Positions 8,809 to 13,734 of a stretch of 64,000 nt of DNA are shown here, piece by piece. How positions within the stretch are numbered: position 1 is the first letter of the stretch; every line of letters begins with the position of its first letter. The position numbers were made by a program, and so were the translations under genes. This DNA is from Okamejei kenojei (taxonomy: Eukaryota): assembly GCA_035221665.1 (NCBI GenBank), contig CM069160.1, forward strand, positions 4,340,001 through 4,404,000, written 5' to 3'. The notes below the pieces were generated by a model, which saw only the letters and a list, made by a program, of their open reading frames with translations, was not told the DNA's origin and ran no database searches.

Positions 8809-9447
8809 TGTGAGGGATAAAGTGATTAAACCCTATTAAAGAAAGGAGTTTTAAAGAGAATTCAAACAGAGAGGGCTGGAGAGGAGATTCTGACAGCAGT
8901 GTCTGAAAATTGCCAGACCCATCCTTGAGGCCTTGAGTAAGAAGAGATAGCTTTGTCTCGCTAGAGAAGGGGGTGATGTAGAGAGATCCCTATCAGTGGA
9001 AAGGAGTGATGGATGGGACCCTAGTCACTATAGCTTAGCTTTAGTGCTGATATAGGAAAACTGAGAGGGTTCACTAGGAGGTGAGCGAAAGTGAGCCAGG
9101 TCATGAGCAATTTGAGCATGCTTAATAGAAAAAATGAATATTACAACACACCCCTGGTCAAGAAATTTGCTCATTACCATGAACATGCAATGTATGATGT
9201 GGGAGGTACGAGGGGATGTACGGTGGGTTGTACCTACAGATTGTGCACCTCCGACTCTGATTGGAGAGAGGTCCGGAGGAGAGAAATTGAATGTAAGATT
9301 TTGTGTATAAAGGGGGATGATCTCCCTGGCTTCAGTGTGTCTCGGGTTGGAGAGGCACCCGGTCTGCAGACTCGTAAAATAAAGAAATCTCTTGCTTCGA
9401 GGATTTAGTCTTTGAGTATTTATTGTGAGCATAAAGGGTATCTCACA
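8809..9447 (+). repeat. 5' LTR (639 bp)
   Basis: Starts tgtgag and ends ctcaca; TATA-like tataaa near 9306; aataaa near 9378; direct repeat of 13102-13734. Confidence 0.97.
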
Positions 9448-9450
9448 AAT

Positions 9451-9468
9451 TGGGGGCTCGTCCGCGAT
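9451..9468 (+). promoter_or_regulatory. Primer-binding site, tRNA-Pro
   Basis: tgggggctcgtccgcgat, one mismatch from the canonical Pro PBS tgggggctcgtccgggat, 3 nt after the LTR. Confidence 0.92.
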
Positions 9469-9659
9469 CGCCACTCCGCTGCTTGGTGGAGACAAGGAAG
9501 GAGGGGAAGGTGCACCCTGCTGATTTCAGCAGTCTCTGATCTCCTTGCTTGCCATCAGCAGTTTGAGCGAGTGATATCCGCTGGAAAAGACTCCGGAAGC
9601 AAGAGGGGGTGTAAGGTAAATACGTACGGGACGGTCGAGTGATTCTTGTGCACAGGACC

Positions 9660-9668
9660 CAGGTAAGA
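9660..9668 (+). promoter_or_regulatory. Putative major splice donor of the ERV
   Basis: CAG|GTAAGA in the leader between the PBS and the gag ATG. Confidence 0.6.
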
Positions 9669-9733
9669 AAAACGACTATTAAGTATTGCCTGGGCGATCG
9701 GGATTTGTCGGACGGGAATAGTCCGACAAGGTA

Positions 9734-10430
9734 ATGGGAAACCGGAACGGGAGAAGTAAGGGTCCGGGGAACCGGGATGAGGCTCATACTGATATGGAGC
9801 CTAACATTCCGCCCGATAGTCCGTTGGGGCGAATGTTGGATGGGGTGAAGGGAACACCCGGGGTAAAGAGTAAGGAAACTATGTGCCTGTCACCAGTATG
9901 GGGTGAGGAACTTTAAAAAGGAGATAAACTATCTGAGAAAGTAACACATTGAGTTTTAGAATGAGAAAGAAGGCAGATCAGAAAGGATTAAAGTGGGAAG
10001 CAGAGGGATGAATTGATGAGACTGCTTTTAGAAAGAGAGAGCATGAAAAAGGAAAGACAATTGTTGTCAGTAAACAACAGACCTGGTTGAAGTCTGGAAT
10101 AAGTGATGCACCGACACACAGTGAGTCCTATGACAGAGCCAAACAGGGCCAGAGATTCCATGCCAATAAATAAATGTATTTGGGAGAGTGTTTTTCTCAA
10201 ATGCCCTATCGGGAGTGAAATAAATCTGGATCTGAGATCCCAGACAAGGCTAGTAAGGAGATAGGTAATGGATAAGGTGTGTTGGGGATGTGAACAGGTA
10301 CGATAATCAGGAAATAATAATAATAATAATAATGAAATCTTAATAATAATATTAAGATAATGGTGAACATAGCTATGATAAGAACATTAAGAAGAGGTAT
10401 TAAATACACCTAGGCTAGGATGCTAAATAC
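9734..10430 (+). pseudogene. gag: gag remnant (N-terminus recognisable, remainder deleted or degenerate)
   Basis: MGNRNGRSK...IPPDSPLGRML: Gly2 myristoylation-type start and a class I ERV matrix-like motif; no capsid homology recognisable afterwards. Confidence 0.7.
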
Positions 10431-10434
10431 TAGC

Positions 10435-11170
10435 GGCGTGTTTTAATCAGATGTTGTAGGCAGATTTTGGAAGGTGTTGATATAGTATGTGGATGATTTT
10501 TTGGTTTGTTCCACAAGTGAGGAGCAACGTGAGAAAGAGACATTGTAATTATCTTGGAAAAGATGGCACAGGAGGTCATGATGTATCAAGGAAGAAGTTT
10601 TTGTTTTGTCAGCAGAAGGTAGAATATTTTGGACAGTGATATCTAAAGAAGTAAAAGCTATAGCGCAGGATCAAATTGGAAGCTTGCCTGCAATCTTGCT
10701 TAGCTCAATTGGCAGAAATTAAGGCTTTAAGAACAGCATATGTACATGGAGTCTGGCATATGTTTGGAGCAGTAGGAAACAGAAAGGCTTTGAGAAAAGC
10801 AACGGAGACCCCATGCAAAGTTAGCAGTGTCCCCCTATGAAATGTTGTTTGGGTTACCTTATTTGGGAAAGATAGAAGGAATACCCACCATAGAGGGCAG
10901 TGATGTATTCTCAAGGAACTATTTACTGGCAATGTCCCGTTCCCTTACAGAATTAAAAGCGAAAGGATTATTGCTCAAAGCCCGCCACTTGACTTTCAAT
11001 ACATGCTGTAAAGGCCGGCGACTGGGTACTGGTTAAAAATTGGAAGGAGGAGAAACTCCAGCCCAGGTGGACCGGCCCGTACCTAGTATTACTGACAACC
11101 GAGACAGCAATACGAACAAAAGAGAAAGGGTGGACCCACGCGATCCGGGTTAAAGACCCGTCGATCCACC
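10435..11170 (+). pseudogene. pol: pol remnants (RT YVDD region, RNase H piece, integrase C-terminus)
   Basis: YVDD at 10486-10497 preceded by an in-frame TAG; FCQQKVEYFG; SAQLAEIKAL; SPYEMLFG; KLQPRWTGPYLVLLTTETAIRTKEKGWTH (GPY/F motif). Confidence 0.9.
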
Positions 11171-11265
11171 CGTTCCTGAGGAGGAGGAACAGCGGACGGT
11201 GAAGCCGGGAAGTAAACCCCTAACAGAATTTTAAAAAGAAAAGCATTGAATGTATAACTGACAGT

Positions 11266-12996
11266 ATGAAAGGAGCAGTCGTGGTATTGTTTGCTTTGTA
11301 TGTAATTGTTGTAAAAGGTATTAATAATTGTGATAAATGTTATCATCCTATTCAATGCAGAGGGGTAATAACCAGACCATTTACCTATCATTCCCATGTG
11401 AATAAAGCATGCCATGACCGAAAGAATAGAATCATTTGTAAAGAGGGGGAAAGGAGTATTTGATGGCAGGCAATAGGGGGTATATAGGGAAGTTTGGGGC
11501 CGTTACCTGCCCAAGGGGAGAGAGATGGGTTTGTGTACAGTTATTTTCCCTTCTCAGATCATAAAAGGGCAATAGATAAGACGAAGGAGGAAGTAGTGAA
11601 AGAGATTACTAAGGTAGTAGTCACGAAGCCTCCCCCTCCCCCACATACTCAGCCTCAAGTGCACCAGACACTGTACGAAGAAATCAAGAAGCAGATCGAA
11701 ATCCCTGAAGGAAGAAAAAACCTGTTTTGTGGACTTGGCCACCCGGATTAGCTGGGACCCCTGAATGTGACTAACTGTTTGGGTCTGCGGAGGACGCTGA
11801 TGAATTCACGTTGGCCGTGGAGAGGATCCATTGTTGAAATATGGGACCTGATGGGTGGAACCTGACAGCTGGACAAGACCGAGATCCCCAGGTATGGGTC
11901 CTGACAGATGCTCCGGTCGGGACTGAGTTATCGCTAGGCCCTGGGCAAAGGATGCCGTCCTAGTAGGCAGCAGCCCCTGCCAGCACATCGTCACCCAGTG
12001 GCCAAATCAGTCCCGAGTGTGGTGGCCAGAGGAGCCTAAATGGTATCTAACTAAGAAATATGGAAAAAACTGCGCTATCCGGATGGAGATTGATGGAGTG
12101 GAATCAGCCGGACTATGGAACTGCACCGGGAATAACCCTTATCAGGGATCCCAGTATTGCGAAATATATGGAACAAGGTTGCCTCTAGTGGACCGGCCCC
12201 TGAAGGATTGTTATGGATATGCGGATACAAGGCATACTCGGTGTTACCGATGAATTGGAGTGGGACTTGTTTTATTGGACTGGTACAACCTGGATTCTTC
12301 CTGTTAAACCCCAAAGAAGGCCAGTCGTTAGGAACACCTGTATTTGATGACCTATATCGGAAAAAGAGGAAAATAGACATTGGAGAATGGGAAGATGATG
12401 AGTGGCCACCAGCAAGAATCATCTCATACTACGGACCAGCCACTTGGGCACAAGATGGATCCTGGGGCTAACCGAACACCAGTATATATGTTAAACCGGA
12501 TCATAAGGCTACAGGCAGTACTGGAGTAATTACCAACCAAACTGCGGGGGCGCTGGAGATGCTGGCAAAGCAGCAGACGCAGATGAGAGCAGCGATATAC
12601 CAGAACAGGTTAGCCCTAGATTATCTCCTGGCAGAAGAAGGAGGGGTATGCGGGAAATTCAACCTCTCTAATTGCTGTTTGAACATCGATGATAATGGAC
12701 AGGCAGTGATGGACATATCAGAAGGGATCCGGAAGTTGGCGCATGTTCCAATACAAAAGTGGAATTCGATTATGGGAACCCAATGGTGGGATTCTATCCT
12801 CGGAGGAACATGGTGGAGAACGGTGGGACTTGTGTTTCTATGTGCAGTGGCTGGACTGATCTTCATCCCCTGTTGTATCCCTTGTTTTAGGGAACTTATT
12901 ACCAGAAGTATAAGTCAGATGCAGGCTGTAGTCATGCCTATGGGAGAGAAAGGGGAAATACAGAAAATAATGATAATGCGGCCAGGGGAAGTTTAG
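11266..12996 (+). CDS. env: Retroviral envelope glycoprotein, gamma-type, ERV3/HERV-I-like; full length but with single-base frameshifts as assembled
   Basis: Signal peptide [41 protein letters not shown] (CxxC); WICG; furin site [50 protein letters not shown]6CC ([10 protein letters not shown]); TM segment [22 protein letters not shown]. Confidence 0.93.
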
Positions 12997-13083
12997 ATTT
13001 ACGGGAGGAGAAGGTTAGGACAATGTTACGTCAGTTCGAATTGAAGGAACTTAAAATGAGGGTTTAATCAGTGTATGCGTAGC

Positions 13084-13100
13084 AAAAGAAAAAGGGAGGA
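13084..13100 (+). promoter_or_regulatory. Polypurine tract
   Basis: aaaagaaaaagggagga immediately before the 3' LTR. Confidence 0.9.
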
Positions 13101-13101
13101 T

Positions 13102-13734
13102 TGTGAGGGATAAAGTGATTAAACCCTATTAAAGAAAGGAGTTTTAAAGAGAATTCAAACAGAGAGGGGCTGGAGAGGAGATTCTGACAGCAGTGTCTGA
13201 AAATTGCCAGACCCATCCTTGAGGCCTTGAGTAAGAAGAGATAGCTTTGTCTCGCTAGAGAAGGGGGTGATGTAGAGAGATCCCTATCAGTGGAAAGGAG
13301 TGATGGATGGGACCCTAGTCACTATAGCTTAGCTTTAGTGCTGATATAGGAAAACTGAGAGGGTTCACTAGGAGGTGAGCGAAAGTGAGCCAGGTCATGA
13401 GCAATTGAGCATGCTTAATAGAAAAAAATGAATATTACAACACACCCCTGGTCAAGAAATTGCTCATTACCATGAACATGCAATGTATGATGTGGGAGGT
13501 ACGAGGGGATGTACGGTGGGTTGTACCTACAGATTGTGCACCTCCGACTCTGATTGGAGAGAGGTCCGGAGGAGAAATTGAATGTAAGATTTTGTGTATA
13601 AAGGGGATGATCTCCCTGGCTTCAGTGTGTCTCGGTTGGAGAGGCACCGGTCTGCAGACTCGTAAAATAAAGAAATCTCTTGCTTCCAGATTTAGTCTTT
13701 GAGTATTTATTGTGAGCATAAAGGGTATCTCACA
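13102..13734 (+). repeat. 3' LTR (633 bp)
   Basis: Direct repeat of 8809-9447. Confidence 0.97.

Follow-up and report, generated by a model that had tools for sequence, protein, structure and literature searches.

The provirus and its env gene

The stretch analysed here, referred to as the window, comprises 64,000 nucleotides (64 kb) of the skate Okamejei kenojei (GenBank assembly GCA_035221665.1, contig CM069160.1, positions 4,340,001 to 4,404,000 of the forward strand), and holds at positions 8809-13734 of its + strand an endogenous retrovirus (ERV) in which a full-span env gene stands beside a collapsed gag-pol region. We consider it fairly probable that this provirus belongs to a multi-copy, non-autonomous ERV family with an ERV3-type env, which would be of recombinant origin and would be copied in trans by a helper virus. 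The anatomy, the recurrence of the pol collapse in three organisms, and the uneven kinship of the parts are observed, whereas an open env, the copy number, the recombinant origin, and the helper are inferred.

The cis-acting elements are intact, as a preliminary description of this DNA had stated, and like all features of the provirus they lie on the + strand. The target-site duplication of 4 bp (8805-8808) is repeated exactly at 13735-13738, while a 5-bp version is mismatched. The 5' long terminal repeat (LTR; 8809-9447, 639 bp) carries a TATA-like motif at 9306 and a poly(A) signal at 9378 and, like the 3' LTR with which it pairs (13102-13734, 633 bp), has TG...CA ends. These essentially identical repeats (1 substitution and 9 small indel events over 641 columns) bound the element at both ends, and a third LTR is absent. 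The primer-binding site (9451-9468), which we take to be of the tRNA-Pro type, is matched at 17 of 18 bases in 10 of 13 retroviral genomes. HERV-I in the strict sense uses a tRNA-Ile primer site and was rejected as an identification, the site instead matching genomes of the murine leukemia virus (MLV) type at 17/18. A splice-donor-like motif is predicted at 9661-9667 by motif scan, and a polypurine tract can be read from the sequence at 13084-13100. A simple scan found no acceptor-like site close to the start of env, such sites occurring only at 10940-10950. No second copy of the element was found within the window.

What is left of gag-pol amounts to 1532 nucleotides from the start of gag to the start of env, compared with 3417 nucleotides for pro-pol alone in a relative. 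The remnants open with the N-terminal part of a Gag of ERV3/HERV-I type (9734-9922; a local search gave 43% identity with P0135 across 42 residues at E 8e-5) and close with the C-terminal part of an integrase of the same type (10809-11172; PF18697 at E 4e-13; 77% and 85% identity to the Leucoraja erinacea Pol P0122). Between them lies a middle block (9923-10805), likely older or from another class I lineage, which consists of unassigned gag-like DNA, an AAT microsatellite with an AT-rich tract (about 10303-10420), scraps of reverse transcriptase (RT) that include the YVDD motif (about 10477-10690), and scraps of RNase H (about 10700-10790). A nonsense codon is present upstream of YVDD in the window sequence, and the earlier picture of a gag-pol reduced to fragments with a stop before this motif stands.

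The env gene (11266-13064) runs from signal peptide to cytoplasmic tail, as described before, over about 599 codons rather than the 575 first given, and contains 12 frame breaks and no in-frame stop. Its transmembrane (TM) piece matches PF00429, and a similarity search gave 133 matches, the named ones being mostly "ERV3 member 1 Env-like" proteins of sharks, rays, and birds. Two natural relatives are unbroken, namely P0001 (423 amino acids; 91% identity over 417 residues) and P0145 (597 amino acids; 76% over 563 residues, with 87% in TM and 56% in the surface subunit, SU), and a tree places the window Env beside these two, but without starred support. With P0001 as query, no loci were found in metagenome or viral contigs. 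A furin site and an immunosuppressive-domain-like motif lie in unbroken pieces of env in the window, and a membrane anchor is also present. The CxxC motif of SU coincides with a frame break in the window and is intact in P0145; the cysteine motif of TM reads CX7CC, and a scan for the CX6CC pattern gave no match. By these sequence features env is classed as ERV3-1 type, with the motifs of a Gamma-type Env.

Copies in other organisms and the frame breaks of env

Part of the internal region is carried by at least 20 sequencing runs from 11 studies, four of which were compared: X1 and X7 from one organism (A), X11 from a second (B), and X14 from a third (C). None of the runs listed as carrying the internal region is on record as RNA; X7 and X11 are only guessed to be RNA, and were not used as evidence of expression. 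Every bin lying wholly within the element (27/27) is covered in all four runs. Contigs of X11 span 9923-10633 and 10604-11221, and contigs of X14 and X7 span 10670/10679-10911, crossing the jump from RNase H to integrase. The pol collapse is common to three organisms and is not private to this copy. The preliminary description had allowed that the deletions might be unique to the copy at hand; this does not hold for pol, whereas the junction near 9923 is unbridged among the contigs listed. As for one internal structure recurring between different flanks, the pol junctions match in the three organisms and the depth of X1 is very high, flanks being absent from the matches listed. The AAT/AT-rich tract at 10303-10420 differs in length from run to run. 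In P0123, a protein of the electric ray Narcine, an RNase H piece is fused directly to the integrase end, a pol collapse that ends at nearly the same place.

The depth of X1 suggests that organism A holds hundreds of copies of the element. At 10774, four contigs of this run have a summed depth of 59,055, and hence at least 14,700 for one of them, while most contigs with rare junctions reach 20-66; the resulting ratio of roughly 200-700 is a rough one, as summed depth is no copy number. The LTR letter at 9094, together with its counterpart in the 3' LTR, appears in none of the four runs, so that either these runs are without this copy, or the letter is the mark of a sub-lineage of its own or of a different species, or else an error made systematically in sequencing.

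The frame breaks of env lie near 11443, 11544, 11722, 11753, 11776, 11795, 11854, 11928, 12149, 12469, 12527, and 12994, of which 11 were counted against P0145 and one more against P0001. According to the preliminary description, env is, as far as could be reconstructed, broken only by single-base indels. In-frame stops are indeed absent, but the break at about 11544 goes together with a gap of four residues relative to P0145. Errors of assembly or sequencing likely account for the breaks, because the indel rate of the LTR pair fits (0.7 per 100 bases per copy, from which 12.7 env indels are expected against 12 observed), contigs of the runs differ at the breaks, and unbroken relatives exist. 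In the gap rows listed, five of the breaks coincide, in each of the four runs, with a single letter gapped between the window and the short-read contigs; two further ones coincide with loose ends of X1 and X7 contigs. One X11 contig covers 11445-12401, with eight breaks inside, and departs from the window there in 12 letters, with a further 11 in gaps. Between the members of a different young repeat pair of the window, 10 indels fall in 750 columns, and homopolymer length at the env breaks shows no clear excess over background. We infer that env is likely open in the family.

Probable mosaic origin and mobilisation in trans

The RT and RNase H scraps, in short pieces of 10-24 residues, are 33-50% identical to six Pols of ERV3/HERV-I type, the RT pieces spanning 33-48%, with best values of 38-48% for the RT pieces and 36-43% for the RNase H pieces. 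Among the six Pols themselves, the same stretches are 76-95% (RT piece) and 90-100% (RNase H piece) identical, and the integrase end of the element reaches 75-85% to its two closest Pols of this type. MLV-type Pols match the RT pieces equally well. The short RT pieces did not group with the ERV3/HERV-I clade, whereas the Gag start and the integrase end are of that kinship, and because the RT/RNase H scraps fail to group there, only the ends of the element are assigned to the ERV3/HERV-I type. The base composition of the middle block, taken without the AAT tract, is 40% GC with an observed/expected CpG ratio of 0.27, versus 47-53% and 0.51-0.87 in the flanking parts of the element. The middle block is probably of greater age than the ends or of a different class I lineage, judging from kinship and composition; it would then not be the virus's own gag-pol decayed in place, as had been assumed, and the element is likely a mosaic of ERV3/HERV-I-type ends and RT/RNase H scraps of different kinship. 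The scraps might be epsilon-like, an impression that the comparison did not confirm, L012 being the best fit for one 10-residue piece only. The single match retrieved for the RT piece as a candidate donor is a repetitive protein and was judged spurious.

Such a mosaic likely arose, in the manner of Harlequin and recKoRV, by template switching between co-packaged RNAs, one from a virus of ERV3/HERV-I type, which would have contributed both ends and env, and one from an older or unrelated class I element, which would have contributed the middle. RNA of the element would in turn likely be co-packaged with, and copied by, the Gag-Pol of a helper virus. Replication of its own is impossible because only the 1532 nucleotides of gag-pol remnants are left, while the marks of integration are clean. 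Copying in trans is likely the simplest account, and the earlier proposal that a deletion derivative was mobilised in this way is borne out to the extent that the pol junctions recur in three organisms. Loose ends flank the 9923-9925 junction on either side, and a short run of letters common to the two sides suggests a microhomology-mediated deletion or switch.

Several points weigh against a widely amplified recombinant family. X11 and X14 reach a depth of no more than about 10-40, and organism A may be the only one in which the family expanded. At the unbridged junction near 9923, loose ends occur at 9923 (X7, X11) and 9925 (X14); moreover, the window copy is the shorter form, because contigs of X11 and X14 carry about 430 extra letters at about 9923. 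The middle block may be native pol after very long decay, and its donor was named neither by protein searches (the RNase H piece as query gave no match at E 10 or better) nor by the atlas, where all scores were below 0.9, nor by viral contigs, which gave nothing. Only 7 of the 12 env breaks are covered by the gap or loose-end rows listed. In X11, differences are fewer in env (17/1657) than outside it (42/2026; p 0.012), but X14 (p 0.48) and X7 (p 0.80) show no such difference, and adding the more divergent contig of X11 removes the signal there (p 0.65). Finally, no helper turned up, no genome-wide search having been made.

Another loose end of X11 lies at 10678 and, together with that of X14 at 9925, hints at less-deleted relatives, in the case of 10678 a relative of the middle block. 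By eye, the X14 loose end resembles the capsid start of a Gag of ERV3/HERV-I type (compare P0134).

Persistence of env and comparison with known systems

The near-identity of the LTRs, on which the element had been called very young, is real, but it bounds the age only loosely: the upper 95% limit on the age of the insertion ranges from 1.2 to 37 million years if rates of 2e-9 to 1e-10 per year are assumed. If the middle is foreign or older, an intact env beside a decayed pol requires no selection on env. There is nearly an even chance that env is a passenger without a role, the 3' half of the recombinant having come recently from an active virus and been amplified from one or a few source loci before env could decay. 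The decayed middle looks older than the ends, copies in the three organisms are only about 1-2% from the window, and the mutation rate described for sharks is low, at 7e-10 per generation (PMC10587355). On the other hand, env-less derivatives are described as usually out-copying env-bearing ones (PMC6112702), which fits poorly with a roleless env, as does the depth of X1, which is no lower over env than over the middle block, env-skipping forms being minor among the joints listed. If env is only a passenger, the element would be a recombinant of the recKoRV/Harlequin kind from a group of hosts that has been little surveyed.

An env kept in working order by its use to the family stands somewhat below an even chance. 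The family and an env-less or env-mismatched helper would complement each other, and spread would proceed by reinfection, with Env coating the cores of the helper; the same idea has been put forward for Harlequin (PMC4724089). That env is full-span and has a furin site, a motif of immunosuppressive type, and an anchor is consistent with such a use, and so is the better conservation of TM than of SU relative to P0145 (87% vs 56%), although this pattern may be older than the deletion. The lower divergence of env in X11 points in the same direction, and 5 of the 12 listed env differences are synonymous, among them 4 of the 5 from 12402 onward; all these counts use the longest or best-supported rows only, and the window's own errors are shared by all. 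As the signal is fragile in X11 and is not repeated in X14 or X7, the indication of selection on env is weak, and the helper on which this account depends did not turn up (no genome-wide search was made).

The fuller version, a two-part skate ERV in which an env-only partner and a separate gag-pol partner depend on each other and hundreds of copies are in the germ line, we regard as rather unlikely. If true, it would mirror the superspreaders that lack env, and its youth would allow a test of the idea, proposed for Harlequin, that Env is supplied in trans. Defective ERVs that reach high copy numbers would be expected to lose env, and a young family that drops gag-pol instead would, if true, imply a different route of spread. 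Hundreds of copies would also make it possible to measure how selection has acted on env since pol was lost, which the old human Harlequin elements hardly do.

That the host uses env, at this locus or at a source locus, for interference of the Fv4 kind, for immunosuppression, or for fusion is quite improbable. The env-only layout does resemble that of ERVWE1 or Fv4 (PMC10536682), and splice donor and LTR promoter motifs are present, but the copies are many and the LTRs near-identical, the layout is not that of a single locus, and the four runs give no sign of carrying this one. A host-useful single locus, one of the roles considered in the preliminary description, is unlikely because the copy number appears to be high. 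It is very improbable that the element is just a dead provirus whose deletions are its own or stem from a collapsed assembly: the assembly is error-rich and the 9923 junction unbridged among the contigs listed, but independent short-read contigs cross the pol junctions in three organisms, which largely refutes this reading for pol.

Harlequin is described as keeping a prominent env while other genes are often deleted, and "midwife" mobilisation with Env in trans has been proposed for it (PMC4724089). Like Harlequin, the skate element is likely a class I mosaic in which env is prominent and other genes are deleted or defective, and its internal pattern, too, is apparently repeated. Harlequin differs in being a primate, HERVE-backed element (HERVERI supergroup) with an average LTR divergence of 8% and an env that is only "rather intact" (PMC4724089), whereas the skate family has a fish host, an unrelated sequence origin, near-identical LTRs, and an env that is likely open. 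The skate element would be an analogue that works like Harlequin, which is taken here from its description only, and not a member of it. The koala recKoRV1 likewise joins the ends of a young virus to an older decayed middle and was remobilised though defective (PMC6112702); it is described as retaining only the end of env, whereas env of the skate element is full length. Fv4 and ERVWE1 have also lost gag-pol and kept env, but these are single fixed loci (PMC10536682), whereas the skate element is apparently multi-copy with both LTRs intact.

The premise of the preliminary description that non-autonomous ERVs usually lose env first is too strong, as Harlequin keeps it (PMC4724089) and high-copy lineages of fish and amphibians tend to (10.1101/2021.11.23.469661). 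High-copy ERV lineages of fish and amphibians are described as tending to retain env, with three cartilaginous fish holding >500 copies (10.1101/2021.11.23.469661), and zebrafish includes env groups from which RT has mostly disappeared (PMC8672886). In the non-autonomous ERVs described for deer mice, coding capacity is wholly absent (PMC10089650). No account of this family was found in the literature searched; repeat libraries, subscription journals, and supplements (among them the anamniote Env lineage tables, in which six cartilaginous fish are covered) may hold one.

Among ERV3/HERV-I-type ERVs of sharks and rays, the Env proteins P0004, P0007, and P0011 are 60-66% identical in TM to that of the window, and the integrase end of the Leucoraja Pol P0122, the nearest named Pol in the searches, is 81% identical. 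P0122 differs in carrying RT, RNase H, and integrase domains, whereas the skate element has scraps only and a middle of other kinship. A named skate Pol family exists in the P0122 cluster. The P0011 cluster, from the stingray Hemitrygon akajei, holds 41 ERV3-like Env sequences, many of them of 556 amino acids. Passerine Env proteins resemble the TM of the window as closely as shark Env proteins do. In a TM tree built on a short alignment, an Env of Narcine and an Env of Aquila (eagle), the pair P0028 and P0039, group together at 100/99 support, and transmission between vertebrate classes is a possible explanation of this pairing. A retroviral genome of 6296 nucleotides (L013) has, at 2750-5641, a shortened pol and a long downstream open reading frame. 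We take it to resemble spleen focus-forming virus, which would make it an exogenous precedent for keeping env.

The chicken element EAV-HP keeps much of gag and is without pol. It is described as a defective multi-copy ERV whose spread is believed to be helper-aided and whose usable env was the source of the env of subgroup J avian leukosis virus (ALV-J), and it differs from the skate element in being related to Alpharetrovirus (PMC4607243).

In the rest of the window, a scan of long open reading frames revealed no recognisable host gene. Remnants of long interspersed nuclear elements with RT or endonuclease matches lie at 15406-17549, 42432-45086, and 60910-61563. The stretches 20300-21240, 31500-32115, 35900-37150, 55780-56125, and 57223-57372 hold tandem arrays (with units of 17, about 75, and 66 bp), a GT-rich low-quality stretch, and a 150-base N gap, all of which are signs of an error-rich long-read assembly.

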